From Mnemiopsis leidyi (taxonomy: Eukaryota): DNA of 64,000 nt. The translations under genes and the position numbers were made by a program. Positions 21,299-41,298 of this stretch are shown one piece after another. Within the stretch, counting starts at the first letter, position 1. Each line of letters opens with the position of its first letter. The stretch covers positions 9,850,715-9,914,714 of the forward strand of contig CM108483.1 of the NCBI GenBank assembly GCA_048537945.1. The letters run 5' to 3'. Below the pieces are notes generated by a model that saw only the letters and a program-made list of their open reading frames with translations, was not told the origin of the DNA and searched no databases.

Positions 21299-21495
21299 TT
21301 GATAGCTATGTAAGAAAGGAGAGAGAAAAAAGAGGACCAATCCCAAGCAACAGTTAGGAAACGAGGTAGGTCGACAAATTTTTTACAGAATATATTGTAA
21401 TACATAAGCGATATCTGAAAATAAAGGTGTGTAACTGGGGGACTAGTTTGATCGGCTATCAGAAACTTCAAAGATTTTATAAGAGTCAACTTCAA
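21299..21495 (-). CDS. Small conserved hydrophobic exon (…FCKKFVDLPRFLTVAWDWSSFFSLLSYIAIK|gtaagc), paralog of 39950-40085
   Basis: It is conserved at the protein level with the copy-B exon (…FCEKFVNLPRTLAVSWDWTSFFSLLIYIAIR|gtgagt). Both are followed by canonical donors. Confidence 0.5.
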
Positions 21496-21567
21496 GTTCT
21501 ACTGGCAAAATCCAAACTAAAATTTGACTGAACCTTTAATTTCAAATGTAATTTAATACTTGCCACT

Positions 21568-22296
21568 AACTATTTTTTCGGTAGAGAATCCAACTCGACA
21601 GGTACTATCGTCCAAGTCTCTCAAGAACCACCGTTTCTCTACCCCATCTTCATCGGTAACGCTTACAATCTTATTAAAAAGTCTCGCCTCTTTATTCCTT
21701 TCATCCACCTTAAGACACATGCCAGCCCGACAAAGCCTCAGAACACAACATACAAATTTGACGTAACTAAGGACCTCGTCAGAAACGAGATTCCCCAGAC
21801 TGTTGAGCCCGTTTTTGAGGAGACTTTCTGATGCGACCTTGTAAATCAGATCTCCTTCCAAAATATAGTCAGTTAGAAGCTGGATTTCGGGTCTACTGAT
21901 GACTTTGATTATGCTTTGATTCCAGATTTTTGCAGGTTCATCGGCATCCTCAATTATCGACATTTCATTATGCAGGATTTTCAGAATCTTCGAGCATCCA
22001 AAGAATACTTTTCTCCGTATTTCTTGCGACATTGATATATCATGTTTTTCTGTAAACTTTGTCAATATCTCGCTGAAAGCATCGTACTTCAAAGACGCAA
22101 GCATGTTGCTAAACCAAGGCGATTTACTATTTGTTTCAAGCCAAGAATTCATCACTTCTCTCTCTAAATGTCTCTTTTCTCTTTCTGGCTCAGAGATACA
22201 TGTTAAAGGTACAGGGCCTGCTAATTCTTGATCACTCATGCCGGAAGATTCAGACTCTGATTGGTGGATATTGCTGGATTCCCTTTCAGCACTTCG
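21568..22296 (-). CDS. Exon encoding the conserved C-terminal domain (…WFSNMLASLKYDAFSEILTKF…ILEGDLIYKVASESLLKNGLNSLGNLVSDEVLSYVKFVCCVLR…RVGFSTEKI|gttagt), paralog of the copy-B exon 40201-41298
   Basis: The ORF at 21553..22239 extends upstream in-frame to acceptor aatttacag near 22297. About 60% identity to the 40156..41304 ORF over ~150 aa. The donor position is conserved (TIDM|gtgagt in copy B). Confidence 0.6.
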
Positions 22297-22403
22297 CTCT
22301 GTAAATTTGTCGTTTGATCAATAAATTTATAACAACACTGAGATTTTTCATCGACTATGACAATACGAATTCTGATATATATATAGACATTTAGAAATGA
22401 ATG

Positions 22404-22628
22404 CTATAAGTAGCTTGTATTAATCCCACCGTTCGTCTCCGCAGATTTTCTCTGTGATTCAATAGTTTGGGTGAATCTGTCAATAGCCACCAGGATTTCA
22501 TCGATACACAGCTCAATTCCGATAAGTAATTCCTGGTCGCTTGTATAGTTCATAATACAGTCTATAGAACTCTCTACAATATAGGCTACTTCCTGTAATA
22601 TGACCCTCATCATCATGTTAGAAATCAA
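22404..22628 (-). CDS. Probable upstream exon of the same gene (…RVILQEVAYIVESSIDCIMNYTSDQELLIGIELCIDEILVAIDRFTQTIESQRKSAETNG)
   Basis: An ORF with a possible acceptor and donor. No homolog is recognised. Confidence 0.35.
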   Translation of the reverse strand: MISNMMMRVILQEVAYIVESSIDCIMNYTSDQELLIGIELCIDEILVAIDRFTQTIESQRKSAETNGGINTSYL

Positions 22629-23217
22629 TAAATTAGATTTTTACAGATATGAGATTTCGAGTAGTGAGATATGAAAGGACCTAGTAATGACCAGACCTGA
22701 TTTGTACCGAATCAGAATATTAGTCGCCTTAAGAAGTTGGGCTGGTAAGGATACAGTTTTTTAATTTAAATGCAATAGTTTTAATACATGCTGCACTTGC
22801 TAAAACCAGTCGCAACAGAGGCTACAGATCCGCAAGGGATTGAGTCCTGGCGTCTAAAAAATAACATCTAAGACACATCGACAGATTGCACATATAGTTG
22901 TACTTGTAGTTTTATTTATAGTAGTAAATTCCAATTCTAATAGTCAGGTTTACCTGAGAGAGGTTCAATAGGAACAGTCTGCTCTGACTCACGTCAGGGT
23001 TTAGCGATCTTGTAGAAATACACAATTGTGAAGATCGGCGAGCGATATCTTTACTTATATTTATTACCTGCAAAAGAAGAACATAAAAATGTTTTATTTC
23101 AATGTTGATTGTTCCATAAGCATAACTTTATGAGCGAATATTAGAAATAATTGAAATAGTATCGCACATTTTAGGTCAATGTTTCGGAGAATCAAGTTTA
23201 AATAGTTTTATTCTTAC

Positions 23218-23586
23218 TCAATGTAACATCACCTCTTGCTGAGCCTCAGAATCCAAACAGTTTATCGCCACTATCTTGTATTTGTTTTTTATTAGGTTTT
23301 CAATAGCCTTCGCTATATCATTGCAAGTCTCAAGGGCCCCCTGATTTGGTTCTTCCCCATCTTTAAATTCAAGTTGACCCAAACATACCAAGATCTCTTT
23401 ACGAGATGATACCAAATTGTTGACAGCAACACTGTGTTCCGCGGGGATTTCATGCCGATTTTTAGCAATTCTCAAATGACACACAGCATCTACACCTAAA
23501 TTGCTAGCTGCTGTAACCAATTTAGGCTTCTCAGGATCACTAAGGTGCGCGATTATTGTTCTGAGATTTTTCAGTGCTTCCGTCAT
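23218..23586 (-). CDS. Probable upstream exon (MTEALKNLRTIIAHLSDPEKPKLVTAASNLGVDAVCHLRIAKNRHEIPAEHSVAVNNLVSSRKEILVCLGQLEFKDGEEPNQGALETCNDIAKAIENLIKNKYKIVAINCLDSEAQQE|gtgatg), helical-bundle-like
   Basis: A 122-aa ORF with donor gag|gtgatg. No confident homology. Confidence 0.35.
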   Translation of the reverse strand: MTEALKNLRTIIAHLSDPEKPKLVTAASNLGVDAVCHLRIAKNRHEIPAEHSVAVNNLVSSRKEILVCLGQLEFKDGEEPNQGALETCNDIAKAIENLIKNKYKIVAINCLDSEAQQEVMLH

Positions 23587-23907
23587 ATTATTCGTTAGTT
23601 CCTTTACCTCCTCTCCTGAAACAAGAAATGTCGTGTCACTACTAGATAATTAATTTCCACATTTTTCCCTTAGCTACCTTAAAAGGTGCTAAATAGCGAA
23701 AAGTGAAATCCGATTTCAAAATTATTTGTATACATTCATTCTATATAATAATGTATAATGATGTATATAATATAATGTACTAACTTAACGCAGTGTTGTT
23801 GACCTCTCCTCGTGCGAGAGGTGCGTTAAAGAAGATGCCACAAGACGCGACCACAGCAGCCTCTAAATTGAGAAAAAGGTTCTCCTTGCAGCCACCAAAA
23901 ACATCCT

Positions 23908-26003
23908 CATTAGGTAGGTTCATAATGACAAAATATGCCGAAATAATTACAGTACAAAGCTAATCTGTTGCTCCCTAGGCCCAATAACCACAAAAAAAAA
24001 TTTTAGGCCCCAACTCCAACGGGAAACACCTTCACCGGCCACGCCCATTTTTTGGCATCAATTTTAACAGGTAAAAATCACTAAATCTGTGTTTTGGACA
24101 TGAAGGAGTTGATTTGAGGCTCTGGAAGTGCCATACTCAAATATAAACGGTAGGAAAAGGTTAACTTTAGTCAAACTCCCAAGTCTCTAGGATGTTGGGA
24201 AATTCGGGAAACGGGAACGCGGGGCGCGGCGACGCCCCGCGCAGCTTGCGCCTCACCTGAAGGTCCTAGAGTGATGAGACTTTCACTAAAATTAACCTTT
24301 TTCTACCATTTATATTCAAGTATGACACTTTCAAGTACCTCAGTTCACTCTTTCCTATCCAAAATGGCAATTTTACGAATTTTATGTGTTATTGTTTGAG
24401 ACATTGTACGCAAATTTGCTGTTATAAAATAGATAGTATATCATACAAAATTTACACTCATTAACTCTCATAAAAATCTAATAAAACTGTTTTAAATCCT
24501 TCTTGGTCTTGTTCCCGTACTTCCTCTGATGAGCTTCCACCACTTGTATGAGTTCTTGGAAGCTATCCTCATCCCTTGTGATCTTTGTGTTTAACCGGGT
24601 CACAAGTCCCAAAGCCCGCTCACAGGAATCGTTGATGGGAGAGAGGTTCTTCAGTGCTGTACCCAACGTCACATACTCGGGTTGCTCGTTCCAGTCAGGC
24701 TTGGAGAGGAAGTCAAGGGGGGTCTTCAGTAAGTCGAAGAGAAGAGTGGAACGTTCTCCGACAAAATCAACCAGCTCTGATTTCTGGCTGATGGAAGGTA
24801 GGGTAGGCTTCCTGATCTCGACCCATCCTGAGCTTAGTTGAGCAATCCTCTGGGCTATTAGAGTCCGGGTCTGCAGGGAGAGCTGGTCATCGAATAGCAC
24901 AAGGGGAATGAGGTCCTCAGTTAGGTACCAGGTGTGACGAAGAAGAGAGTTGATGAAGGAGAGGAGATCTTCTTTTTCTCTCTGATAGGAAGGAGGAATG
25001 ACAGGGAAGATGAAGGAATCCAGATCCAGGGAATCCCATGAGGTCTTTAGGACTTTAAAGAGTGTGACCTCGGGTGACTTGGTTTCACCGAACAGTTCTG
25101 TGAATGCTGCTCCGACCACGAGTTCGGAAATCAGAGCTGGTTGATTTTGTCGGAGAACGTTCCACTCTCCTCTTCGACTTACTGAAGACCCCCCTTGACT
25201 TCCTCTCCAAGCCTGACTGGAACGAGCAACCCGAGTATGTGACGTTGGGTACAGCACTGAAGAACCTCTCTCCCATCAACGATTCCTGTGAGCAGGCTTT
25301 GGGACTTGTGACCCGGTTAAACACAAAGATCACAAGGGATGAGGATAGCTTCCAAGAACTCATACAAGTGGTGGAAGCTCATCAGAGGAAGTACGGGAAC
25401 AAGACCAAGAAGGATTTAAAACAGTTTTATTAGATTTTTATGAGAGTTAATGAGTGTAAATTTTGTATGATATACTATCTATTTTATAACAGCAAATTTG
25501 CGTACAATGTCTCAAACAATAACACATAAAATTCGTATAATTGCCATTTTGGATAGGAAAGAGTGAACTGAGGTACTTGAAAGTGTCATACTTGAATATA
25601 AATGGTAGAAAAAGGTTAATTTTAGTGAAAGTCTCATCACTCTAGGACCTTCAGGTGAGGTGCAAGCTGCGCGGGGCGTCGCCGCGCCCCGCGTTCCCGT
25701 TTCCCGAATTTCCCAACATCCTAGAGACTTGGGAGTTTGACTAAAGTTAACCTTTTCCTACCGTTTATATTTGAGTATGGCACTTCCAGAGCCTCAAATC
25801 AACTCCTTCATGTCCAAAACACAGATTTAGTGATTTTTACCTGTTAAAATTGATGCCAAAAAATGGGCGTGGCCGGTGAAGGTGTTTCCCGTTGGAGTTG
25901 GGGCCTAAAATTTTTTTTGGTGGTTATTGGGCCTAGGGAGCAACAGATTAGCTTTGTACTGTAATTATTTCGGCATATTTTGTCATTATGAACCTACCTA
26001 ATC
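23908..26003. mobile_element. Large near-perfect palindrome: ~870-bp inverted arms (23908-~24780 and ~25130-26003) around a ~350-bp unique spacer. Possibly a long-TIR or foldback DNA transposon, or an inverted duplication.
   Basis: The sequence at 23925-24530 is the exact reverse complement of 25380-25990. The duplicated ORFs at 24548..24841 (+) and 25085..25363 (-) are identical for 76 aa. The arm tips are attaggtaggttcat. The flanks are …catcctc|arm and arm|cctcatc, a possible CCTC target-site duplication. Confidence 0.75.
24478..25130 (-). pseudogene. Transposase-derived coding fragment with a hAT-like C-terminal dimerisation domain (…DFLSKPDWNEQPEYVTLGTALKNLSPINDSCERALGLVTRLNTKITRDEDSFQELIQVVEAHQRKYGNKTKKDLKQFY*). 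A partial mirror copy lies on + at 25135-25433.
   Basis: The ORF at 24478..25257 spans the spacer and arm 1. The motif pattern (D/W…P.L..lA..L, S.ER.lg.v…R..L) resembles a hAT dimerisation domain. The first ~42 aa of that ORF lie antisense in arm 2 and are not coding. Confidence 0.4.
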
Positions 26004-26868
26004 CTCATCAATACAAACCGGCAGATCTTCAATCGGACGGGTCAAAGCGTTTATAGAGTCGTAGATCTTGTCAATACTACTTTGGATTATCACATCAATC
26101 ACATCCTTATCAAGGTCAGAAGAAAACTGTTGTCCCATGCGGGCTGATTGAGCTATGTGGATACCACCGCACTGGATCAAGTGCTCCGGAGGATCAGGAC
26201 ACACAGAGATAACTTCTGGGCGCAGTATTCCAGTCATAGCTGTGTTGTCTTTAACCTCCCCGCCTCCTCCGACGTCTGGTGAAATTGACGTTCGCCTACA
26301 TGAAACTGGTGGTAGTGCATTACGTTCAAGTTCAACAGTCGAATGTTCATATGGTAGTGAACACCTGAGTAGTTGTGTTGGTGAAGCTGACTGTGACACG
26401 GAGAAACCTGAACAGGGCGGACTTGCTGACGGGTAAATTGTAGACATTGCTGGACTTGATGATGATGAAGGTGGTGACATTGCCATGTCTGGACTTGAAA
26501 GAGACAAAGCCGGTGAGCCCAGACGACAATCATAAGCTATGGGAGGAGCTGCACACAGCTGCATCTTAATCCCTAGGTCTTTTCCCGTAAATTGTCTCGG
26601 CGTGACTGATTTGGAGGCTAAATGCGACGAGTTAGATTTGAATGAATCCGAGCTGGTCACAGTGCTGATAAAAGAGATAGTTCCAGCTGGCCCAGAATTA
26701 TGTCCGACTAACTGCGATGAAATGTCAACTTTTGATGATTCGTCTATAAACGGGTCATCTAGTTCTGAAGCCATGCCCATTCTGTGTAATGCGGCATCCC
26801 CAGCGTAAGCATCTTTGCTGCCCATTCCTAAAATAACCGGAGCTTCTGTCGATTTTGAAACCACTGAC
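25998..26868 (-). CDS. PARP4-like copy A: C-terminal exon with actin-like segment 2 (…VSKSTEAPVILGMGSKDAYAGDAALHRMGMASELDDPF…) and a Ser/Pro-rich tail. It ends at an in-frame TAG (25998-26000) that overlaps a possible donor ag|gtaggt.
   Basis: The ORF at 25998..26864 has acceptor tcctttcag. Its phase-2 junction with the previous exon (AVIR|S) is conserved with copy B (AVFR|S). Confidence 0.6.
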
Positions 26869-27048
26869 CTGAAAGGAGTTTATATATTCATAAGTTCAAA
26901 TCAATGGAAAAATGTGCATCGAAGAAAAATGATGTTTCATTGGCGAAAGGCCTATTTGGTTGTTTTTTTCAGAGCTTTGAACATCAGTTTACGCTGAGCA
27001 CAGATTTTGAATTAATTGTACATTGCTACTAGCGTTATATGAACAAAC

Positions 27049-27263
27049 CTAATAACTGCTCGTGGAGCGTCATCTCCCACAAAACCTCCCTTTATTATGT
27101 ACGATCCTAGATCTACAACCAGAGTAGAGGTGTCATCATCTTCTTCCTCAGATGAGGAGTCTGCTCTAGATTCATCACTATCAGAGGATTCAGAAACCGT
27201 AAGATCAGCAAATGTTTCCTCTGAGTTTCCCGGGGGATGAACATGCCTTTTCGTTTCTATCGC
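27049..27263 (-). CDS. PARP4-like copy A: acidic Ser/Asp/Glu stretch plus the actin N-terminal motif (…[46 protein letters not shown])
   Basis: Acceptor cacag|GCG and donor ag|gtttgt. [23 protein letters not shown] is similar to actin [24 protein letters not shown]. Confidence 0.7.
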
Positions 27264-27376
27264 CTGTGAAGTATTCACTACTTTAAAATGCACAGCTGAT
27301 AAAAATCAACGAAGAAAACCACCAACATACTGTTTAATCAGATTTGAAGAAGCCAGTAAAATTCTAAAACCTTAAC

Positions 27377-27580
27377 ATGAAGTTTCGGAACATCCGTGTA
27401 TGCGACATAAGGAAGACTATCTTCCTGCATCTCAGACAAGAGAGTCTCAATATCAACTGTTTTTTGGATAATCTCGTCTTTCTCTCGTTCTTCAACAGCA
27501 ACAAAGCTGGTAAAGGGAGATATCACTGAGTGTTCCAGGGACAACGATATAATTTCCTCTTTTCTCTTTCTCTGCTGACT
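27377..27580 (-). CDS. PARP4-like copy A exon (SQQRKRKEEIISLSLEHSVISPFTSFVAVEEREKDEIIQKTVDIETLLSEMQEDSLPYVAYTDVPKLH)
   Basis: Acceptor tttttcag and donor cat|gttaag. The paralog is the 44202..44474 ORF. Confidence 0.7.
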
Positions 27581-27711
27581 CTGAAAAAAGTGCTTTTATA
27601 AAATCTTAAAATTTGATTTCGACATGGAGTCAATACACAGCCTTGTGCTCTTACATCAGCGTAAAATAAATAATACGGGATGGAAATTGTGCCGGGAACT
27701 AAAAATTATAC

Positions 27712-27797
27712 CTCGTGTAGCCTTTGATCTTCACTCATTACCCCACTCACATAGTCTTCTATCATAGCTCTAGCAGTGAGCTTGTGTATCACACTTC
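27712..27797 (-). CDS. PARP4-like copy A exon (G-SVIHKLTARAMIEDYVSGVMSEDQRLHE)
   Basis: Acceptor ttttggcag and donor gag|gtataa. Confidence 0.55.
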
Positions 27798-27896
27798 CTG
27801 CCAAAAACCTTCATGTTAATGAACAATTTCATTGTTGAATACCCCTAATTACTTTAGTAAGTGGTTAAAAGGGCTGGAGTATAAAAAACTACCTAC

Positions 27897-27986
27897 CTTG
27901 CTTAACGTTGAGTTCCTCAACACTGACTAGAGTATCCAAGAACTGATCCCCGAGATGAGCTAAAAGGGATGCAGATCTGCAGTGTG
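27897..27986 (-). CDS. PARP4-like copy A exon (IVYGYVPHCRSASLLAHLGDQFLDTLVSVEELNVKQ-)
   Basis: Acceptor gctcag and donor g|gtaggt. The paralog lies inside the 44796..45023 ORF. Confidence 0.6.
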
Positions 27987-28163
27987 GAACATACCCGTAT
28001 ACTATCTGAGCATCAAGTTTGTGAGGTGTTTTGAGTTTCTCAAGTCTGATTTTACTATCTGAAAATCAAGTCACAGATAGTAAAATCAGACTCAGAACAC
28101 CTTATAAATGTACTTAATGCCCAGTTGTAACTAAGAAATTGACAGTAGTAAAAAAAATTAAAC

Positions 28164-28398
28164 CTGTCGATGTTTGTTGAAGAGGGAGGATATTATGAGA
28201 GGGGCTTGATTAACTCTGTCACCGCTGTTGTACATGTTCCATTTTAACTGTACTTCATCTAAAGCAGGCTCCTGACATTTGTCATACAGTTCATCGACCT
28301 TGTTCATCCATTTACCCTTTTCTTTGGGATTGAGAAAGAAGAAGGAACCACTTCCTTGTTTTGCTAACGATTGTAGATAATGCTTGTTTCCATCTTCT
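28164..28398 (-). CDS. PARP4-like copy A exon after the vWA domain (R-EDGNKHYLQSLAKQGSGSFFFLNPKEKGKWMNKVDELYDKCQEPALDEVQLKWNMYNSGDRVNQAPLIISSLFNKHRQ)
   Basis: The ORF at 28158..28460 has acceptor ttgcag|A and donor cag|gtttaa. It is 90% identical to copy B (44978..45325). Confidence 0.7.
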
Positions 28399-29026: not shown

Positions 29027-29048
29027 CTGGACGTATAAGTTATAATTT

Positions 29049-29510
29049 TCCAAAAACCAATAAATTGGTTGCTCCCTTTGACCGGGGAGAGTCTCTTGGC
29101 TATTCCCTATTAGAATAAAGTGATATTCCGATTAAGCCCGGGGTAGCAATTAACGTTAACTCCGTCAATTTTCTCTCGGTCGCTTGCTTTTGAATTTTTA
29201 TGGCTACGCGTTGGTAGATTTTTTACCTCACCACTTTGCACTCTTTAATGTTTAATTTTAAAAGTATTTCTATCTTACAAATCTTCATCTGTCATCTACA
29301 ACTTCATCTAAAACTACAACTTACGAGCAAAGCCCGCTTAAATAATACTGGTAAATTTTTAAAAACTCAAAAGCAAGCGACCGAGAGAAAATTGACGGAG
29401 TTAACGTTAATTGCTACCCCGGGCTTAATCGGAATATCACTTTATTCTAATAGGGAATAGCCAAGAGACTCTCCCCGGTCAAAGGGAGCAACCAATTTAT
29501 TGGTTTTTGG
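29049..29510. mobile_element. Foldback or MITE-like element: ~150-bp perfect inverted arms (29049-29200 and 29360-29510) around an ~160-bp loop
   Basis: caaaaaccaataaattggttgctccctttgaccggggagagtctcttggc… is the reverse complement of …gccaagagactctccccggtcaaagggagcaaccaatttattggtttttgg. Confidence 0.8.
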
Positions 29511-30396
29511 AAAATTATATCATTCTTTTTTAGCGCAATCGGGAATATAGTTCAATAGATTGATCAACTTACGACAGTCATAAGACAAATTAAGAGATTT
29601 TGGCTTTTGAAACTATCAGCATCGAGATCACCGTGAAATTCTGTACTAAAATGATGGTCCACTTTTCCTTTTAGCTCAAAGTTGAAAATTCTCATTTTTG
29701 GGCAATTAAGGCCTATTAGGGCCAACTAAGGGGTGTTCTAACAGTTTTCGCACTTTAAAACTATCACCATCGGAATCGCCGTAAAATTTTGCACAAGAAT
29801 GATGGTCTAACTTTTTTTCTAGCCCAAAGTAAAAATTTCGTCTTTTTAAAATGTACTAACTTTAGGACGTCATAAATATATGATAACGTCATAAGACAAA
29901 GTTTTTACCCCACTTAAGTCAATTACTAGTTAACTGCCTTTAAAATCCGGGTTAATTCGTTGTTTTATCGTAAAAAATGTAGAAGTGACAACGATTTGAA
30001 AATGGAAAAATATCAAAAACGACGCAAAAATCCGTCTTTTTGGGAGGTGTCCATTTCATGACGTCATAAAATTATCAAAACAACACTTGAGAAAAATTTT
30101 ACGCCGCGTAATTTGTTAACTAGTATACTGAGTTCAAAATGTGCTGTGTTTCGTTGCTCTATCTTTTAAATTGTTGTCGGAAAATTAATTTGAAAATGGA
30201 AAATCAACGCCAAAATCAAAAAAATTACCAACTTAGGACAGTCATAAGACGATTTTAAAGGGCTAAATCAAAAATCGGGCTTCGCTAGTGCACAATTTAA
30301 TCGATTATCTTCAAAACGCCGTGCTTTTCAAGTCTCTATCTTTTTCATTGCGATCAGAAACTGACCCCCCGTTTTCCCGCCCCAAGCGTCTATCCC

Positions 30397-30427
<31 letters not shown>

Positions 30428-30430
<3 letters not shown>

Positions 30431-31110
30431 TGACCAAAACCCAAAACTTGGGTGTATGTGACCGCTTTTTAAAGACCCTCGATTAAATCGCTATCAAAAG
30501 TATCGCAGCTTAATAAACAACGTTATCTAAATGCGTTAAAAAGGTGTGATATCGAAAGTTCTGACCGCTATTTCTTAACTCGAAAACGGTCGCTTGCTTT
30601 GGCCGTCACGCCATTTGTCAGTTGTCAGGCTCATCAAATTGTTCGACAAAATTTTCAGCTCAAAGAAAGATTGTTAACGCTTTGTACTGAAGTTCGAATA
30701 TTCAGCATGAGGCAGTTATGAACTTGAAGTTGTTCTCTGAGCACTAAAGTGAAGCTAAAATTACAGGTCAACTTGCGGTAGGTCAATATGGACTGCCTAC
30801 AATTATTGAACTTCGGCATTTAACAGTTTAACTTAGATATAAGCAGTATTCCAATAGATTTGAAAGAAATACTCTTTAAAAATGGGAAGGTTTTCATAAT
30901 TTGATGAGCCTGACAACTGACATTAATGGCGTGACGGCCAAAGCAAGCGACCGTTTTCGAGTTAAGAAATAGCGGTCAGAACTTTCGATATCACACCTTT
31001 TTAACGCATTTAGATAACGTTGTTTATTAAGCTGCGATACTTTTGATAGCGATTTAATCGAGGGTCTTTAAAAAGCGGTCACATACACCCAAGTTTTGGG
31101 TTTTGGTCAA
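30428..31110. mobile_element. Second foldback element: ~220-bp inverted arms (30428-30650 and 30890-31110), preceded by an (AT)n tract
   Basis: aaattgaccaaaacccaaaacttgggtgtatgtgaccgc… is the reverse complement of …gcggtcacatacacccaagttttgggttttggtcaattt. Confidence 0.8.
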
Positions 31111-31299
31111 TTTATATCACATCTTTTGGTTTAAGAATGGCCGCTATACGTGCAATAACTGATAGAAGCCTGGTTTAGAACTTTGGATTTGGTGGGATGA
31201 TTGAAGCTGATGTGAAAAGGCATTAAGACAAAGCGATTATCTTTCGACCCATTGCCTTAGAGTTAGTTTAAAATGCATCCTTTAACCTGCTAGGAAGGA

Positions 31300-32260
31300 A
31301 CTTTTAAAAAGTCGATTTTCTCAATTATTAAATATTGCAAAATTTTCAAAATTCACAAACTTTTTCTTCTAATGATGACGTCATAGGGGCGTGGCCTTTT
31401 AATATTTTGAAATGAAACCTAGCCTAAAGCACGCCCCAAACAATTATCTTTTAGACCCTAGGTCGTTTTAAGCTCAATTATGTATCGTTCTTTCGTTATA
31501 AGTTGCACAAAATTGCAGACATTTCACGTGATTTTTAGTTAAAAACGTTTATCTTCATCCGCAATTATCTCGATAATGAAACAAGATAATCGACTTTTGG
31601 AAGACAGCATTCGACAGTAGAAACGATTATCTTTCGTTATCATGGTCTTCGTTTTCACTCAATCTGCATCTTAAAACAATAAAATGAACTTTGAAAAATT
31701 TGGTTTTTGAATTTTCGATAATGAAATTTTTCTAAAAATGATGACGTCATAGGGGTGTTGCCTTTTAACATTTTGAAATGAGACCGAGCCTAAAGCACGC
31801 CCCAAACGATTATCTTTTAGACCCTAGGTCGTTTTAAGCTCAATTATGTATGGTTCTTTCGTTATAAGTTGCACAAAATTGCAGACATTTCACGTGATTT
31901 TTAGTAAAAAACGCTTATCTTCATCCGCGATTATCTCGATAATGGAACAAGATAATCGACTTTTGGACGGCAGCATCTGAAAGTAGAAACGATTATCTTT
32001 CCGCATTACGATCTTCGATTTTTGCTCAGATTGCATCTTAAACCAATAAAATTAATTCTAAAAAATTTGGTTTTTGAATATTCGATGATGAAATTTTTCT
32101 AGAAATGATGACGTCATAAGGGCGTAGCCTTTCAATATTTTGAAACGAGACCTAGCCTAAAGTACGCCCCAAACGATTATCTTTAAGACCCTAGGTCGTT
32201 TTAAACCCAACTATGTATGGTTCTCTCGTTATAAGTTGCACAAAATGGCAGAGTTTGGCG
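31300..32260. repeat. Tandem satellite: ~410-bp unit x ~2.3, each unit carrying a tgatgacgtcata (CRE-like TGACGTCA) palindrome. Related gacgtcataa motifs occur at 29860-30075.
   Basis: Units start near 31325, 31735 and 32100 (…aatgatgacgtcataggggcgtggccttttaatattttgaaatga…cctaaagcacgccccaaac…). Confidence 0.8.
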
Positions 32261-32487
32261 TCTATACCCCTATATATATATATATATATACATACATATA
32301 TCACACGACAATTTGTTTGAAAATGGGGGTTCCAGAAACCCCCCTTCCCGATACCTGTTGACCTTCAAATTTTTTTTGCCATTGGTTTGGACAACTTCTA
32401 GTAGATTTGTAAAGTTTCAAGTTTCAATCTCTATTTTAACATAGTTTTCAAGACACCTGAACATGGCCATTTTTGCCAAATCGTACT

Positions 32488-32709
32488 AATTTTGTATAAC
32501 AGCGCTGGCAAGTTTTTGAACAAAACTTCGATTACTTCTATGTTACATGTTACCACTAACGGAGGCGTTTGGCCTCGGACCGCTGCCTTCGGCAGCGGCC
32601 CTCGGCCAGTTTGAGGGTAGGCTAACAGCCTCAGGCCGCTGCCTTCGGCAGCGGCCTTCGGCCGGTTTGGTGGAAGAAGAAGAAAAAACCGGTCGCGCTT
32701 GCCAGCGCT

Positions 32710-32712
<3 letters not shown>
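32488..32712. mobile_element. MITE-like element with TIRs (taacagcgctggcaagtttttgaac … ccggtcgcgcttgccagcgctgtga) and internal GC palindromes (gccgctgccttcggcagcggcc x2). A second copy lies at 32960-33190.
   Basis: The inverted agcgctggcaag / cttgccagcgct termini are present in both copies. Confidence 0.55.

Positions 32713-32780
<68 letters not shown>
32712..32780. repeat. (TA)n microsatellite (~34 units). Other (TA)n or (AT)n tracts lie at 30400-30428 and 32268-32300.
   Basis: atatatat… seen directly. Confidence 0.95.
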
Positions 32781-32781
<1 letters not shown>

Positions 32782-33306
32782 TCAGACGAAAATTACTGAA
32801 AAAATGCATTTTTTAAGGCGTTACTGCAGACGCACCTTAAGAGATAGAGACTTGAAATTTTCAGGATCACCTAGATACATACTCAAGACAAAAACTGCAA
32901 ATTTTCAAGCTTCTAAGTAATCGGGAAAGTGGTTTTCTGGATAGCCGAGTTTTGAGTTTTACGTAATCGTGTATAATAGCGCTGGCAAGTTTTTCAACTT
33001 TCGTTGAAAACTTTTTCCGAGAGGGGCGCTTGTTTGGCCGAGTCGTCGGGGGCCTTCGGCCCCCTCCTCCGGTAACGGGCCTGCGTCGGGGCCTTCGGCC
33101 CCTCCTTGGCCTAGGCAAAGGGGGCTTTGTTGGGCCCTGGCAAGTGCGGCGGAAGTTTTTTTCCCCGGTCGCGCTTGCCAGCGCTATAATTGACAAAATC
33201 GCATAGTCATATTCTCAAGACATACTTTCCATGCTCTTCTTTTCCAATTTGACGCAACTTGACATCAAGATTTACAAATAGTGGGATGATATAATTTGGA
33301 GCGTAC

Positions 33307-34256: not shown

Positions 34257-34390
34257 CGGTTCTTCCTGCTCCATCAGATATGCCCCATGACCGGCCGCCA
34301 CTGCTTGTCTGTACTCTCTTCTTGCTTCTTCTTTCTTCTTCAGCTGTCCCACGATGTGTTTATCTCCAATGTAGGCTTCAAATCCGCTCA
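34257..34390 (-). CDS. PARP4-like copy A: VIT exon (V-SGFEAYIGDKHIVGQLKKKEEARREYRQAVAAGHGAYLMEQEEP)
   Basis: The ORF at 34218..34439 has donor ccg|gtaaca. KKEEARREYRQAVAAGHGAYL resembles the ITIH/VIT consensus (KEKEKAQKQYEKAVSQGKTAGL). Confidence 0.7.
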
Positions 34391-34511
34391 CTAGATGGTG
34401 TACACGCCATTTGCGAGGAAGAAAGAAAAAAATGTGCAATGAAATTGAATTTTTTGGTTCTAAATGGACGGATTGTCAAAAATTTAAACAACTATTGTAA
34501 CTAGTAACTAC

Positions 34512-34600
34512 CTGCACATCCATCACTCAAGGGAAAAACGAACTTTGCCTCCCGTTCTACATTGCAGTCACTGTGATACGAGTGAAGAACAATAACCTGG
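34512..34600 (-). CDS. PARP4-like copy A: start of the VIT domain (GQVIVLHSYHSDCNVEREAKFVFPLSDGCA-)
   Basis: Acceptor tttcag and donor cag|gtag. Confidence 0.55.
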
Positions 34601-34849
34601 CCTGAAAATTTCAAAAATTGTAGTTTGGTGGTTTTATTTTTTAACGGGAGCCACTTCCCGGCCAGCTACCTGCTACATTTGAGGAGGAAAAGTGATTACA
34701 TACTTATAATACATATCCAATCATCACTAATTCCCCGAACTACAAACTAGAAAATTTTAAAAAGCATCGCCCATCAACTTGACAGCATCAATTCTTTTGT
34801 TAAACTGGTGGCCCGATGAAAATTCCTCACATTCCTACTTAGTACTTAC

Positions 34850-35016
34850 CGACCATATCAGTGATGTTGGCGACTACATTGACCGTAGAGAGAGGAACTG
34901 GACTACCCTGAACTACAAGACCGATATCTACAGATTTGACGACAGTTCCATCCAGTATGTCATCAATGTCTAGAGCAGCAATTTCCTTGTTTTCACCATC
35001 GTCAAATTCCTTCTCC
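34850..35016 (-). CDS. PARP4-like copy A: linker exon (EKEFDDGENKEIAALDIDDILDGTVVKSVDIGLVVQGSPVPLSTVNVVANITDMV-)
   Basis: Acceptor gaattcag and donor g|gtaagt. Confidence 0.55.
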
Positions 35017-35160
35017 TGAATTCGATTTAGATTTGAGGCGTATGAAATACGTGCTTATCTTTATAAATGCGATGTGACATGGTGTCATTGAGAATATGGA
35101 TTGTGGGTGCATGTCTTCAACAAACAAAGAAAGGATCAATAACTCTTGAATCAGTTTCTA

Positions 35161-35348
35161 CCTTTTCGTTAGAATAAGATGTTTCAACAGGGGGGTATAA
35201 AAAGTTGGGATCAGGTATCACTCCAAACTCTATCAGTCCGATAATTTTGATACGATTCGTGTCGAAGATGCAGAATTCTCGGAAGTCAAAACACGACAAA
35301 TCATCTTCAGAACGAGTTGTTGAAACCACGGAATCATACCTGTAGAGA
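35161..35348 (-). CDS. PARP4: PARP4-like copy A: PARP catalytic domain C-terminal exon with the catalytic Glu (G-YDSVVSTTRSEDDLSCFDFREFCIFDTNRIKIIGLIEFGVIPDPNFLYPPVETSYSNEK)
   Basis: The ORF at 35117..35329. APPTGYDSV…DD…FDFREFCIF…IKIIGLIEF is similar to human PARP4 APPGYDSVHGV…DFEDDEFVVYKTNQVKMKYIIKF. Confidence 0.8.
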
Positions 35349-35446
35349 AATTGGGAAATTTAGAATTATAAAATGTGGAAGTAGCGCAGCAAAGAACTCT
35401 GTAGGGCTTTCAAAGATTATCAAAACTCTTTTCTAATGTAACCTAC

Positions 35447-35579
35447 CCAGTAGGAGGAGCAGATATACCCTGAAGTTCCTTGGAAGTAGCGTACTGGTTT
35501 CCTGCAACTACTTCACAGACTACTAGGAACATAGTCCCTCTGGGGGAAGTTTCACTGGGGTGCAAGTATCTGATACTGT
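35447..35579 (-). CDS. PARP4: PARP4-like copy A: PARP catalytic exon (-DSIRYLHPSETSPRGTMFLVVCEVVAGNQYATSKELQGISAPPTG-)
   Basis: Acceptor ttttcag and donor gg|gtaggt. Similar to PARP4 YSHPGETDGTRLLLICDVALGKC. Confidence 0.75.
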
Positions 35580-35706
35580 CCCTGAAAATACTCAAGGTAT
35601 GATACGCTGTTAAGTTTTTACAAGCACGTGGGTAATAAGAGCTTTCTGCCTAGAATAAAGCAAGTTTCATTCGATAAGAAGCACTAACAAAGCATTTTAG
35701 ACTTAC

Positions 35707-35783
35707 ATTGGATTTTCTGAGAAGTAGATTCCTCGACCCAGACGACCATGATCACGTCTTATGATACCAAGTTCATTTTCAAC
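35707..35783 (-). CDS. PARP4: PARP4-like copy A: PARP catalytic exon with the Tyr motif (VENELGIIRRDHGRLGRGIYFSENPM)
   Basis: Acceptor tttttttag and donor aat|gtaagt. GRGIYFSE resembles PARP GSGIYFSD. Confidence 0.75.
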
Positions 35784-35890
35784 CTAAAAAAATGATTGGG
35801 AATGTCAAAATAAATTCGCCATAAAAACAGACCTCGTGAATTCATCAAGCATGCCAAAATCAAATCTCGCAAAGTCTGTAAACAACCTAC

Positions 35891-36053
35891 CTGCCAGGGT
35901 AAAACAAGACCCCGAGACAAAACACCCCACATATTGGAAGTGGCAGTGGCATGATAGAGAACTTTTTTAGGAGCAGAGGGGTACCGGACTTGCTGCATCA
36001 CGGAAGAGGGGTGTTCCAAAGAGTAGTACATGGTCGGATAACCGCTGTCTTCT
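35891..36053 (-). CDS. PARP4: PARP4-like copy A: PARP catalytic exon with the His motif (…EDSGYPTMYYSLEHPSSVMQQVRYPSAPKKVLYHATATSNMWGVLSRGLVLPWQ)
   Basis: The ORF at 35759..36085 has acceptor atttacag and donor cag|gtaggt. VLYHATATSNMWGVLSRGL resembles LLHGSPVQNIVGILCRGL. Confidence 0.75.
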
Positions 36054-36189
36054 CTGTAAATGTTGATAAATTCAAGAACTGGCAATTTCAGATTGTGAAA
36101 TAATTGTTATCTCACGACTCACGTAGATCAGATTTAAATGAAATGCTGTTGTTATTAATAGTTAATTGAAAACCTTTATGTGACTAGAC

Positions 36190-36378
36190 TTACTCAATGA
36201 TTTTTATAGCTGACTGAACTTCTTTTCTTGAAATTGGCGCCAGACTAATTTTACAACCCAATGCACGATAAATATCCTCAGCTGTCGATATTCCTAGATA
36301 TTTTATCATTTTCATGATATGAAGGATAGCGATAAAGAATGCAACAATGCCCGCAGGACTAAAGGATACCAATTCCAT
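36190..36378 (-). CDS. PARP4-like copy A: PARP regulatory or catalytic N-terminal exon (approximate)
   Basis: The ORF at 36190..36378 is conserved in copy B. Exact splice sites were not resolved. Confidence 0.45.
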   Translation of the reverse strand: MELVSFSPAGIVAFFIAILHIMKMIKYLGISTAEDIYRALGCKISLAPISRKEVQSAIKIIE

Positions 36379-36475
36379 ACAAACTCAAATAGCAAAAAGA
36401 CAGTTAAGCTAACTGAATAGTTCATTGTTGTGAAAGTAACCTTGAGAATAGTTCATTGTTGTGAAAGTAACCTTG

Positions 36476-37066
36476 AGATAGAGGAATACGGTCCTTCAGG
36501 ATCCTGATTCTGTCCAAAAGTACCACCAATCCAGATTGTTTGGCAAAACTCTCCATTTTAGTTACTCCAGCTGAACTCAACTCCTTAGTCAATGCAGCAA
36601 ACAACTCAATCCTATCAGATGAGTTTTTTACCGTTGCGTCCAATAAATCCAACGCGATACTTTCTATCCTCACGGCCTTTGGTAGGGTTATTTCACCGTC
36701 ACCAAGCTCATCTAAAGCATCTTCCGCGGAATCCCAGAGAAATTTAACCAATGATAACACTCTCATTTTATGCGGAAAAATATCCAACTCAAGATCAACT
36801 TTCTCTTTCTTAAAAGGTTTCTTATCTCCCCATGTCTCATTGAGAACATGCTGTTCTTTGTAAGATCTTTTCGAGACAGCTGAGTAAACAAAGATAGCCT
36901 CAGTTCGATCTGTCAGGTCCCAAACTTTGCACTCCAACTTAGAACCACGCTTAACGACTCGATACTTTGCTGGGGGTTTAAACCAGAGTTCGGTTTTGTT
37001 GACATAGCAGAACTTCAACTTGACCATTTCTTTGTGGTCCAGCGTGGAGACAAGATACTTCGTGAC
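36476..37066 (-). CDS. PARP4-like copy A: large exon covering the region between BRCT and the catalytic domain (…VTKYLVSTLDHKEMVKLKFCYVNKTELWFKPPAKYRVVKRGSKLECKVWDL…ITLPKAVRIESIALDLLDATVKNSSDRIELFAALTKEL…DRIPLSQ-)
   Basis: The ORF at 36422..37027 has acceptor aatttcag near 37067 and donor caag|gttact. It is 95% identical to copy B (50553..51134). Confidence 0.65.
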
Positions 37067-37339
37067 TGAAATTTATAAACAGTAAGACATAATATAATGT
37101 GAATAATGGGAATTGTATTTTATTTTATGATATTGAGGTCTCCTTAGGTAGTACCTCTGCTGTACACTATCTCGTCACAAATTTTCAAACTTGACTCTGT
37201 AAGAATCTTGAAATTCTACTCGCACAGTATAGTACTTGTGTTAACAATATTGAAAATTACAATAATTAAATAACAAAATCAAAATGTTTCAACAGAAAGA
37301 ACATATTTTTTACACATTTTGGACAAAATATTATTACCA

Positions 37340-37468
37340 GATAATAATAGTTCTTTCTTTCGCTCCTTATCAAGAAATAACGGCTCATTTTCCGCACCTA
37401 AATCTAGCTGAAATTTTCCCGAATCTGTTTTCTCTTGAGCACTGAACTCCTCATATTGCTCGTAACTC
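37340..37468 (-). CDS. PARP4-like copy A exon (SYEQYEEFSAQEKTDSGKFQLDLGAENEP…), approximate
   Basis: Conserved with copy B at 52505-52600. The acceptor is cag|AGTTACGAGC. Confidence 0.45.
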
Positions 37469-37611
37469 TAACAGAAGCAAAGAAAATTTTAGTCGACCTA
37501 CAAGTAATAAACTTGTGTATTTTTAGGTCTTAACCATTCCACCATAGAACTGGCCGAAATGAGAACTAAAAAATGTCGTTGAAATCACTTAATTTAACCT
37601 GTTTTATTCCT

Positions 37612-37735
37612 AAAGCAGTAGACTCGTCTATGTAACGTTCTGACACAACTGGAATACCAAGCTTCTTGCATGTTTCACCCCTGGAGCTTTCTTTAAATCT
37701 TAACACGTTCGAACTTAAAACACAGCCCACCTGGG
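37612..37735 (-). CDS. PARP4-like copy A: second half of the BRCT domain (…VLSSNVLKFKESSRGETCKKLGIPVVSERYIDESTALGIKQ), approximate
   Basis: Paralog of the 52634..52846 ORF. It matches the BRCT C-terminal half. Confidence 0.55.
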
Positions 37736-37874
37736 AGTTAACTATTTCAGCAGAGTCGGGAATTTATCCAATTTACAATTCTGTATCAGCTGTGTATATG
37801 TGATCCTAATTTAAAGAGATTTGTTTGCTAACTCTTACAAACCCTGCAAATATTTTTGTTGATTCAAACAAACC

Positions 37875-38005
37875 TTTTTGTTAAGACTAAATGATACTTG
37901 TCCTCCCCCATCAACTACTGCATTTTTTATCCGGGTTTTTGTCTTAAAATTGTAGCTGGTACCATCGATAAAGATGACATCCCCTTGGAACAGGTTTTCC
38001 TTCAT
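37875..38005 (-). CDS. PARP4: PARP4-like copy A: first coding exon, BRCT N-terminal half (MKENLFQGDVIFIDGTSYNFKTKTRIKNAVVDGGGQVSFSLNKK)
   Basis: ATG at 38003-38005 (- strand) and donor aag|gtttgt. KNAVVDGGGQVSFSLNKK resembles PARP4 IKENGGKFSFSLNPQ. Confidence 0.65.
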
Positions 38006-39694
38006 TCTTTATCTTACAACCATTATTTTCCCCATTAACCTGTGTTATGTACGTGGAAATCCGAACAATAAATTGTGTCTTTAACATTGAATAATAATAA
38101 TAAAGTCGACCGAATGAGATTGCTCAAATATTTGTATTTTAAGACTCTTTGCAGTTGAAATTTTTCAGAGAAAGCTCGACACGAATTGTCAAACATTGAA
38201 TAAAACTGAGGTTTGAAATCAAAAATTGGTAATATAGAGTGGTAATTTAACCACGATTACATTTACAATGAAAAACTGACGTAAACATGAAGAAAGAGAT
38301 AGAGATCCACTGACTCTGAGGATTCCATCTATAGGTGAAAAGTAAATCTTAACTAACAAAATAACAAACTTGATTCTTGATAACGACAAAGATTGGATCA
38401 CTATGACTGCGCTGACATAAAAACTTAAAATTGCAAAATTTCTATATTTTTAATTTATTAGAATTTAAGAACAACTTGTTTGGTCAGGTAAAGCTTAAAT
38501 TGACATTCAAGATTGCACCAATGACCAAAAACAGGTTAATTTGTAAGATAAGGACTAAAGTAGGATGGCTTGTTACATGTTAATGTAATCTAACTCATAC
38601 TTGATATCTAATTTTATTTGTATGGCCTGAACTCATTCTCGTTGATTTCTTTTTCAGGTTATAATTGTCGTCTATAATCATAAAAAAGATCTGAAATTTG
38701 TAACAGACGTCATTCGACATAAAACGTGACAGTTTGCAAAAAACGTAACAGGTTGCATAAAACGGTTGAATCCATCTAACATTGAGTAAAAAGCCGTAAA
38801 AACTATAAGATCATAGAAAAGTCGCAAAATTTACCGATCCAATATCAAGTAATCTTTCTGTAAATTATAAAGAAAAGCATCTGTGAAAAAAATTTACATA
38901 CATCATACTATACTATACAAAATTTCAGTTGAACCAAAAACTGAACAAACTACACACAACCAACTTAATTCAATTTTCACATATAAACAACTTTTCTCTC
39001 AACCATAAGACATAAATACAAAACATTTATCAAATAATCACATACATAAAAAGATTACCACAGTCTACGCACTAGCTGCAAGGACAAGCAGATTGCGGCG
39101 CATGTGGTGGTTATGGAATAACATAAAATGTAAAAAAAAGGTGAAAAATAGATAGATTGATTTCTCAAGTCAAAAAGAAAGAAATTTAAGAGAAAAAAAG
39201 AAAGAAATTTAAGAGTATTCAGAAAATGCCTCCAAATTGCTTTTTTGAACTATAATGATAAATGATTTTATGTTTTAAAAGAAAGTTTCATCTCTAAAAT
39301 TTAACAAACAATCATCATGATCGATTGACAATGTGCAATCTTCGGTAACAATCATGTTAAAAGATATTAAACCGGATAAATGATTACAGTTACTTCTGTC
39401 TGCGATTATTGTACCACATCTAAAGCAGAATGTTACAATCAGTCGCTTCAAATTCTTTTACGATTGGAAATAGAACAGCGCTGAAATCCAAACAGCAGAC
39501 TTTTTTTCTTTCTTGCTTCTTCTATGAATTGCTTTCCTTTATTCTGAAAAAAAATTGATACGGGTGATAAAAATAGAGGCCATCCTAAAGGTTAAAGTAC
39601 TCTCAATTTTCATACGACATACCCGATAAGTTAATTCCCACAGTTGCAGCAGTACATAAAATGAATGAAGAGTTCAACTAACAATACTCACAGT

Positions 39695-39785
39695 TATGTT
39701 GTACGGACTATCACTGCTGAATATCGAATACGCTGCTTCAAATAAATCTTTTGTTAGTGTCACATCTTTTTCTTGCTGATCCTGA
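39695..39785 (-). CDS. Candidate downstream exon of copy B (DQQEKDVTLTKDLFEAAYSIFSSDSPYNIT|gtgagt)
   Basis: Acceptor cag and donor gtgagt with an open frame. No homology. Confidence 0.3.
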
Positions 39786-39949
39786 GTTCAAAATGAATCA
39801 GCAAAGCATAGTCAAGAAATGATTATTTATTCCCCAATGATTTGAAACTCGATGATTTCATTAGGTCAAAATGTGCTCCAGGATTTTTGATATTCAAAAA
39901 GCAATTTCAACGAAATACACTCGATAAGTTTTGGCATAAAAACTCACTC

Positions 39950-40085
39950 TAATAGCGATGTAAATAAGTAGAGAGAAAAAGGATGTCCAATCCCAAGAAA
40001 CGGCTAGGGTGCGAGGTAGGTTAACAAATTTCTCACAGAAGATAATGTAGTACAATCCCTGTAGCTGAAGGTGGTTCTCATTCAA
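39950..40085 (-). CDS. PARP4-like copy B: small hydrophobic exon (…LYYIIFCEKFVNLPRTLAVSWDWTSFFSLLIYIAIR|gtgagt)
   Basis: Paralog of 21299-21495. It is followed by a canonical donor. Confidence 0.5.
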
Positions 40086-40200
40086 TATGGTAAAAACGAT
40101 ATGTATACTATTATGAGTAATGAGAAGTGAAATGGATTTGGCTTATTCAGTAGACTTACTTTAAGTAATTTCGAGAACTTTTAAGTTGAATTTGACTCAC

Positions 40201-41298
40201 CATGTCAATCGTTTCGTACCGATGACGAATGTAATCATTACTGAAGTCGTCGTAAACGAAATCCGGCCATATCCAGTCGGTTGCAACATCACTCACAATT
40301 TGCGTTAACTGCCTTTCATCATCATCTTCATGAGAGGCGGCAACGGCACATCTTAGAACACAACAGATAACTTTTACGTAACTAAGAAACTCGCCAGAAA
40401 CGAGGTTCCCCAAACTATTGAGTCCATTTTTGAGGAGACTTTCTGATGCAATCTTGTAAATCAGATCTCCTTCCAAAATATCGTCAGTCAGAAGCTGGAC
40501 ATCGGGTCTACTGATGACTTCAAGGATGTTTTGTTTCCAAATTGTTGTTTTGTCTCCGCTGGAATTCAACTTCAATTCAACAGAAATTACTTCAAATATT
40601 TTTCTCACAGTTTGGTATATCTTGGTGCGTCTCTGTCTTGATATTGTCAACATTTTTCTATCTGAAAACTTCGACAGGATTTCGCAGAACGCATCGTACT
40701 TAATCGAGGCAAGCAGGTTGCTATACCACACGGACTCCCCCTCTGATCTTTCAGATAATTCAGTCAATTCTTTCACAAATTCTCTCTTCCTTCTATCCAC
40801 TTCAGTAAAGCCCCAGAACTCATCCTGGTCTTCCTCCTCTTTCATGGGGACCGGGAAAGATGACCGTGAAATGGGTACGTTCGATGATCGAAACCGTTCT
40901 GGACCGCTTGATGCGAACGTTGAGTAACCTACTGGCATTGACTTCTCACAAGATTGTTCCATAAGCATGTTTAGGTTTTCGGATCGATCTACCATCTTAT
41001 TTAAACTATCCTTGAATATAACTTCTTGATACTGCTTTAGTTCTTCGGCTAGTTGTAAAGTAGATCTGCTACCAAGACAGACATCCTCAATTGTTGGATC
41101 GTATTCATTTTTAGAACGAGATGAGAATTCCACGAATTCATCAATAGTAGGATGTAGATCAAGAGAGCTGGCTTGGTCATACATGACAGCATCCAAAGAG
41201 TCAGCATCTAAGTCTAGACAATCTTGAAAATTTTCTCCAGAATCATGATATGCCATTTTAACTAAAGATCCCTCGTCGACAACATCTTCAATATCCAC
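40201..41298 (-). CDS. PARP4-like copy B: large C-terminal exon (VDIEDVVDEGSLVKMAYHDSGENF…WYSNLLASIKYDAFCEILSKF…ILEGDLIYKIASESLLKNGLNSLGNLVSGEFLSYVKVICCVLR…RHRYETIDM|gtgagt)
   Basis: The ORF at 40156..41304 has acceptor ttgcag|GTGGAT and donor atg|gtgagt. It contains the domain shared with 21568-22296. Confidence 0.65.

Follow-up and report, generated by a model that had tools for sequence, protein, structure and literature searches.

A PARP4-like gene copy in Mnemiopsis leidyi that was probably split by a long-terminal-inverted-repeat transposon in a coding exon

Introduction

The 64,000-nucleotide stretch of Mnemiopsis leidyi DNA analysed here (assembly GCA_048537945.1, contig CM108483.1, positions 9,850,715 to 9,914,714; hereafter the window, from whose first letter all coordinates are counted) contains a tandem duplicate of a PARP4-like gene. 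Both copies lie on the minus strand, and self-comparison places copy A from ~38006 down to ~21000 and copy B from ~53111 down to ~39950. The locus raises the question of where copy A ends: its reading frame meets a TAG at the edge of a large palindrome, and exons that resemble the end of copy B lie beyond both. A first-pass annotation of the window had proposed that copy A runs on past this point, and had offered three explanations, namely that the insertion of the palindrome split copy A into two genes, that the TAG is bypassed through an overlapping splice donor, or that the palindrome sits in an intron.

It is argued here that copy A is probably one gene, whose ancestral coding sequence reached position 20993 and which was split by a long-terminal-inverted-repeat (long-TIR) DNA transposon inserted in a coding exon. 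As a statement about gene structure the proposed continuation of copy A holds, on the evidence of conserved splice sites and of the frame obtained when the element is excised. The first of the three explanations comes closest, in that a transposon with an 8-bp target-site duplication (TSD) lies in a coding exon and supplies the stop codon; the second gene near 23600 that this explanation brought with it is unsupported.

A transposon within a coding exon of copy A

Both the in-frame TAG, at 26000-25998, and the 2.1 kb palindrome were found as first described. The palindrome spans 23909-26002, its 876-nt arms being 99.4% complementary and separated by a 342-nt loop, and can be resolved into a bounded element flanked by a duplicated target site:

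23911..26000, no strand assigned: long-TIR DNA transposon, 2090 bp, with arms at 23911-24784 and 25127-26000 and loop at 24785-25126.
26001..26008, minus strand: target-site duplication, upstream copy ATGAGGAT, read directly; fits nTnnnnAn.
23903..23910, minus strand: target-site duplication, downstream copy ATGAGGAT, read directly.

Read on the minus strand, the footprint is TAGGTAGG.../...CCTACCTA, bounded by a perfect 8-bp direct repeat (chance ~1.5e-5), and the two junctions read ...TTGATGAGGAT|TAGGTAGGTTCATAATG... and ...CATTATGAACCTACCTA|ATGAGGAT|GTTTTTGG.... The arms differ at five mismatches, the loop is non-palindromic, and the termini (TAGGTAGGTTCA.../...TGAACCTACCTA) are found nowhere else in the window. 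The TAG at 26000-25998 consists of the first three bases of the transposon on this strand, and unless the element is excised, the frame ends with ...PVCIDED.

That the element lies in an exon is shown by empty sites in two related assemblies. The loci in question, L003 and L004, were found via the contigs of nine proteins matched in a search with the helical domain that copies A and B share (described below), and are orthologous to copy A, with VIT and actin-like open reading frames (ORFs) upstream and collinear sequence downstream. In each of them a single ORF spans the insertion point uninterrupted (L003 7992-8561; L004 7531-8754, 407 aa), which contradicts the proposal that the palindrome occupies an intron. 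When the element and one duplicate are deleted from the window, the sequence ...PVCIDED|VFGGCKENLFLNLEAAVVASCGIFFNAPLARGEVNNTAL is restored and aligns to the ORFs of L003 and L004. The excised copy then joins nine coding pieces through eight GT..AG junctions in one frame with no internal stop, giving 921 aa to 21017 as first assembled, or 918 codons to a TAA at 20995-20993 from a slightly later start. The same exons threaded in the relatives stay open over 960 aa in L004 and over 970 aa in L003, and all three frames end shortly after ...CSILVSY. The eight splice-site pairs of the window recur at identical positions in L003 and L004, with one L004 donor being GC instead of GT, and the exon limits given below were set by these splice sites conserved in the three assemblies.

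The exception lies at L004 7370/7371: the donor of the intron that follows the actin-fragment exon is apparently GC in this assembly (AG|GCGAGT), and GT in the window and L003.

The remaining proposal, a bypass of the stop through the donor TAG|gtaggt, was rejected, because the TAG lies in frame upstream of that donor, on its exon side, and would stay in the mRNA.

Copy A from the actin fragments to its 3' end

The exons restored by excision, from upstream to the end of the gene, are as follows:

27049..27224, minus strand: actin-fragment exon (...STLVVDLGSYIIKGGFVGDDAPRAVI); donor AG|GTTTGT after 27049, phase 2; 5' limit approximate.
26001..26868, minus strand: large exon, part upstream of the transposon (SVVSKSTEAP...PVCIDED); acceptor cag|G at 26868.
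23785..23902, minus strand: large exon, part downstream of the transposon (VFGGCKENLFLNLEAAVVASCGIFFNAPLARGEVNNTAL); conserved donor A|GTTAGT, phase 1; aligns to the L003 and L004 ORFs.
23233..23615, minus strand: talin-like exon 1 (EEVKELTNNMTEALKNL...SEAQQE); acceptor and donor conserved in the three assemblies.
22954..23067, minus strand: talin-like exon 2 (VINISKDIARRSSQLCISTRSL...LSQ); conserved splice sites; talin match.
22430..22592, minus strand: talin-like exon 3 (EVAYIVESSIDC...SAETN); donor phase 1; talin match.
21571..22298, minus strand: shared-domain exon (core WFSNMLASLKYDAF...ILEGDLIYKVASESLLKNGLNSLG...CCVLRL); conserved splice sites; paralog in copy B.
21298..21414, minus strand: small hydrophobic exon of 39 codons (ISLMYYNIFCKKFVDLPRFLTVAWDWSSFFSLLSYIAIK); conserved splice sites; paralog in copy B.
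20993..21112, minus strand: terminal exon (INHNIQELQYDEKTFFEIASVGFDPEQECSILVSYFCFN, then TAA 20995-20993); conserved in L003 and L004.

The actin-fragment exon, a paralog of 44105-43932 in copy B, matches Pfam Actin at profile positions 2-31 (E 4e-06), and the large exon carries on the actin-like motif (VILGMGSKDAYAGD). Copy A has one copy of this fragment, split by an intron (27194-27049 and 26868-26770), and copy B has two (44081-43932 and 43564-43331). The fragments correspond to the actin N-terminus, positions 2-65 of 410 in the Pfam profile with the D-loop stretch included, and the same holds for a more distant relative, P0066. A complete actin fold (~375 residues with the ATPase core) was considered and rejected; with only positions 2-65 of 410 matched, these segments are described as fragments.

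Further downstream, the joined exons match the Pfam family Talin_IBS2B (PF21896) with 33.8 bits against a cut-off of 27 (E 3.6e-08, profile positions 4-116 of 118), and the ORF at 23218-23586 alone reaches only 14.3 bits. The joined exons also match talin-1 (PDB 1sj8) over ~220 residues (E 2.8e-06), in an alignment that starts in the post-insertion tail of the large exon and runs unbroken across three exon junctions. The product of the spliced exons at 23902-23785 and 23615-22430 is a predicted talin-rod-like helical bundle. It resembles the talin rod in scoring above the Pfam cut-off and aligning to talin-1, but differs in that copy A has one bundle-sized segment within a PARP4-like protein, with neither a FERM head nor an above-threshold I/LWEQ domain. 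No counterpart of the talin-like exons was found in copy B or in its ortholog, L005.

Copy A reaches past 21299, the lower limit of the stretch in which its continuation had been proposed, by ~300 nt, to the terminal exon at 21112-20993. This exon shows synonymous changes in VSY, and in the window, L003 and L004 alike a stop follows CSIL at a distance of 8-13 codons; no match to it was found in copy B. For annotation, the true 3' end of copy A is 20993, and the ORFs between 23615 and 20993 are to be treated as exons of the PARP4-like gene and not as separate genes.

The ancestral coding sequence of copy A begins with the PARP4-like part (VIT, weak vWA, and candidate BRCT and PARP catalytic matches), passes into the actin-fragment exon and the large Ser/Pro-rich exon, and continues through the three talin-like exons and those of the shared orphan domain and the small hydrophobic segment to the terminal exon, which ends at 20993. 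In the sequenced haplotype the 2090-bp element entered the large exon just before the talin-like region, duplicating ATGAGGAT, and its terminal TAG, falling in frame, ends the frame after ...PVCIDED. The interrupted allele would yield either a shortened protein that ends ahead of the talin-like and shared domains or an mRNA degraded for its premature stop. Copy B keeps the shared domain in frame and would be its intact carrier in this window. That the downstream exons of copy A are still intact presumably reflects a young insertion, as compared with the age of the split from the related assemblies.

Alternative explanations

Long-term selection is in keeping with a coding region that extends across the insertion: dN/dS, the ratio of non-synonymous to synonymous change, is 0.17-0.47 in every downstream part of copy A, no higher than in the part upstream of the element, and 0.28 in the shared-domain exon. 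Several points weigh against a single gene cut short by the transposon. In the copy-A domain exon, 4 synonymous and 15 non-synonymous changes separate the window from L002 (Logan ERR13395280), a contig with 97.6% identity; dN/dS is ~1, with changes on both lineages, although these counts are small (binomial p ~0.02). Between the window and this contig exon divergence equals intron divergence (2.6% vs 2.5%), and the corresponding comparison of the copy-B domain exon gives 4 synonymous and 6 non-synonymous changes, the latter all outside the domain core. The pattern in copy A hints at a relaxation of constraint on its tail that was independent of the insertion and may be recent. Expression from the interrupted allele is, moreover, something that we infer, and an in-frame splice rescue is conceivable in principle, from a donor CCG|GTTTGT at 26019/26018 to acceptors at 23906/23905 or 23885/23884.

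Such a rescue would amount to the removal of the transposon from the pre-mRNA as a new intron, with the 876-nt arms pairing to bring cryptic sites close together and with a near full-length protein as the product, short of 5-12 residues at the insertion site. The donor CCG|GTTTGT lies in frame upstream of the TAG and would place the exon end at 26019, and GTTTGT is also the donor hexamer of the intron after the copy-A actin exon. On the other side, the acceptor GAG|G at 23906/23905 would cost five residues (VCIDE) and the acceptor AAG|G at 23885/23884 twelve (VCIDEDVFGGCK), both in frame, and all downstream copy-A exons are intact. Wessler and colleagues reportedly found maize Ds and dSpm insertions in exons to be spliced out of pre-mRNA, and the situation here is alike in having a DNA transposon in a coding exon, with a donor-like end and possible acceptors at the other end. 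It differs in that the best terminal donor, TAG|GTAGGT, which is the strongest at the junction, leaves the element's stop codon in the mRNA, and in that splicing here is a prediction from sequence. The nearest acceptor, moreover, has a disfavoured G at position -3, a recent insertion would leave the downstream exons intact in any case, and the near-neutral pattern against L002 speaks against strong current constraint. Taken together, a newly spliced intron is considered rather unlikely. It is likewise unlikely that the insertion made two expressed genes, a truncated PARP4-like gene and a new downstream gene, starting at about 23600 or driven by the element, that would comprise the talin-like bundle, the shared domain and the tail. 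Transposon ends can bear outward promoters, and an in-frame ATG stands at 23586, from which the spliced frame is open to 20993; this ATG is, however, not conserved, being replaced by Ile in L004. A gene starting near 23600 had been named in the first-pass annotation as the outcome contrary to a continuing copy A, and what is found there instead is an acceptor 29 nt upstream of the ATG which, together with the residues EEVKELTNN, is conserved in all three assemblies and marks an internal exon. The talin match, too, starts further upstream than the 23233-23615 exon, within that part of the large exon which follows the insertion.

If the true exon is uninterrupted, the palindrome would have to be an artefact of assembly, for instance a fold-back chimera among the long reads, and near-perfect palindromes do form a known class of artefact. 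Exact look-ups found no second assembly of the same locus: two NCBI Mnemiopsis proteins and the junction ORF 25998-26864 returned no record, and the empty-site junction was not found in an exact scan of Joint Genome Institute (JGI) metagenome contigs. A fold-back chimera would, however, invert flanking gene sequence and not insert a member of a repeat family, whereas the palindrome is a bounded element with defined termini, a perfect 8-bp TSD, a non-palindromic 342-nt loop and five arm mismatches, and has a family copy in another assembly with the same termini, long TIRs and its own TSD. On these grounds an artefact was rejected as highly improbable. A single gene split by a transposon in a coding exon is retained as the preferred explanation.

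The transposon family

The element belongs to a multi-copy family, as relatives of its ORF with 97-100% identity are found on three different large Mnemiopsis leidyi contigs. Another assembly, L006, contains a member of the family whose TIRs measure 484 nt; its termini are TAGGGTGGTTCA, and it is flanked by a perfect 8-bp TSD of its own, CTGTATAG. No autonomous copy of the family was found. The kind of event, a transposon in an exon, is ordinary, and it is the architecture of the gene and its orphan end domain that are more unusual. The locus is nevertheless of value as an instance of a long-TIR DNA transposon family, able to knock out coding exons, that has been active recently in a ctenophore and for which a clean before-and-after comparison is available.

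Within the transposon a 265-codon open frame lies at 24481-25275. Its relatives fall into 55 clusters, with the consensus ...RHTWYLTEELIPL...NLSPLNDSCERALG...QELIQVVEAH..., in Mnemiopsis leidyi and other contigs. Pfam searches with this ORF and 26 relatives gave no significant family, and PDB searches by sequence and profile gave chance-level matches only (COQ9, E 0.12; Sonic hedgehog, E 0.64) and no transposase.

An 8-bp target-site duplication is a hallmark of hAT elements (PMC3942097), and it is shared by the element described here. The termini start with TAGG, like the Ac 3' end, and the terminal motif (TAGGT in the window, TAGGG in L006) fits the YARNG type. Both TSDs, ATGAGGAT and CTGTATAG, fit nTnnnnAn, a target pattern that Arensburger and colleagues are said to have given for the Ac group in 2011. 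The differences are TIRs of 876 nt (window) and 484 nt (L006), as opposed to 10-25 bp in hAT, and an ORF family in which neither a hAT transposase nor a dimerisation domain was detected. The element may thus be called hAT-like by its footprint, which does not establish membership in hAT. Very long inverted arms that form a near palindrome and could fold into a hairpin are also a feature of fold-back elements, such as Drosophila FB and Galileo of the P superfamily. FB duplications are 9-bp and those of Galileo 7-bp, and their termini would differ from those found here.

The shared helical domain and the small hydrophobic exon

The two copies correspond over the shared domain (21697-22194 in A, 40312-40806 in B) and over the small exon (21292-21423 in A, 39942-40073 in B) in tblastx and blastn comparisons. 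The identity of about 60% that had been assigned to the whole domain exon applies to its core, where 75 of 127 residues (59%) are identical from WFSNML to CCVLRL; over the whole local alignment it is 92 of 205 (45%). The alignment score was reached by none of 300 shuffles, and the first ~160 aa of the copy-B exon are without counterpart in that of copy A. The limits proposed earlier are exact for the copy-B exon (40201-41298) and 2-3 nt off for that of copy A, given as 21568-22296 and here placed at 21571-22298. The donor position is conserved, as had been observed: AAA ATA|GTTAGT in A and GAC ATG|GTGAGT in B are both phase 0 and stand at aligned positions. Conservation of the small exon was also borne out, with 26 of 39 residues identical between A (21414-21298, ISLMYYNIFCKKF...IAIK) and B (40064-39948), its length being 39 codons in each copy and not 31. 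A transmembrane reading of this exon was rejected as unproven: the best 19-residue hydropathy is 1.23 in A and 1.51 in B, against the usual cut-off of 1.6, and an Asp lies in mid-segment.

For the shared domain, eleven helices are predicted by AlphaFold2 from a 10-sequence alignment (mean pLDDT, the per-residue confidence score, 67; pTM, the predicted template-modelling score, 0.60). Pfam, PDB-sequence and PDB-fold searches gave no relative, a profile search found only five clusters among 1.84 billion representative proteins, and the homolog search matched only the nine proteins mentioned above. With moderate confidence, the domain is a putative lineage-restricted, all-helical orphan. The earlier suggestion of a novel helical interaction module is accordingly upheld only as regards the lack of a Pfam, PDB-sequence or fold relative and, at moderate confidence, the predicted all-helical structure; an interaction function is unsupported.

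The human PARP4 C-terminus carries an MVP-interaction (MINT) domain, which is also all-helical and spans residues 1562-1724 (PMC12280208). The resemblance to vertebrate PARP4 lies in the all-helical nature of the C-terminal domain in both, and the difference in that the terminal helical domain of copies A and B matches nothing in the PDB by sequence or by fold, not even human PARP4. Equivalence with MINT was weighed for position and helical content and was rejected, as sequence and fold searches give it no support. An architecture that joins actin fragments and a talin-rod-like bundle to a lineage-restricted helical end domain suggests that the role is cytoskeletal and not purely linked to vaults. 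A much bolder proposal, and a quite improbable one, would be that the shared domain is a ctenophore-specific docking module that replaces MINT and tethers the PARP4-like ADP-ribosyltransferase, with its D-loop-containing actin fragments, Pro-rich repeats and talin-like bundle, to the actin/adhesion cytoskeleton rather than, or besides, vaults, and that the copy-A allele is still functional, with the hairpin transposon spliced out as a newborn intron.

Copy B and existing gene models

The corresponding part of copy B consists of the following exons:

42245..43722, minus strand: large exon (degenerate and intact actin N-terminal fragments, APPRAPGA repeat, ...GASIRDDE); donor GAG|GTGAGT, phase 0; 5' limit approximate.
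41398..41604, minus strand: extra in-frame exon (VNIEDVVEEE...LEGVE) from an internal duplication; matches model P0073.
40201..41298, minus strand: shared-domain exon (VDIEDVV...HRYETIDM); donor |GTGAGT; matches P0073.
39948..40064, minus strand: small hydrophobic exon (LQGLYYIIFCEKF...IAIR); paralog in copy A; skipped by P0073.

The large exon matches Pfam Actin with E 7e-12. The extra exon at 41604-41398 was made by an internal duplication (41344-41630 vs 42215-42397) and is single copy in L005. The copy-B junctions are all phase 0 and coincide with those of P0073, an existing 1520-aa UniParc model (UPI0004EA5606), which begins inside B, leaves out the small exon and passes through an exon at 39781-39692 into the 5' exons of copy A (37467-35709). 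This model is a B-to-A read-through chimera. In the distant relative P0066, one 745-aa ORF contains the actin fragment, Pro-rich repeats and the domain; therefore the actin-fragment region and the shared domain belong to one protein.

At 42846-43212 copy B has a 24-nt tandem repeat encoding ~11 APPRAPGA units, of which P0073 has fewer, and this suggests copy-number variation or collapse in the older assembly.

The PARP4-like part and the large intron of copy A

The VIT domain is matched above the Pfam cut-off in both copies (E 1.1e-15 in B, 3.3e-13 in A). The other matches are weaker: PARP catalytic in the roughly joined copy-B exons reaches E 6.5e-06 (26.2 bits vs a cut-off of 26.7), and in P0073 a partial domain at E 0.0032; VWA_3 is weak (E 3e-04, 21.3 bits vs 27), as is BRCT_2, found in one ORF fragment (E 0.048). 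PARP4-like, the label given in the first-pass annotation, is on these profile matches a fair description of the upstream exons, in which VIT is followed by the weak vWA match.

The set of domains in PARP4 is VWA, VIT, BRCT and MINT, without actin, Pro-rich or talin-like parts (PMC12280208). Copy B, mirrored by copy A, resembles vertebrate PARP4 (vault PARP) in its upstream VIT and weak vWA matches, with candidate BRCT (weak) and PARP catalytic domains besides, but after the vWA both copies have actin N-terminal fragments and Pro-rich repeats, and copy A also has the talin-rod-like bundle.

Copy A also has an intron of ~4.2 kb at 29042-33238, the copy-B counterpart of which measures only some tens of bases. 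In it lie a pair of 220-nt inverted repeats (30423-30640 and 30898-31117, 99%) beside a (TA)n tract, as well as a tandem duplication (31358-32252) and, near 32700, a dinucleotide microsatellite of TA type, seen as IYIY... in the ORF list. The repeats in this intron are probably further mobile-element insertions.

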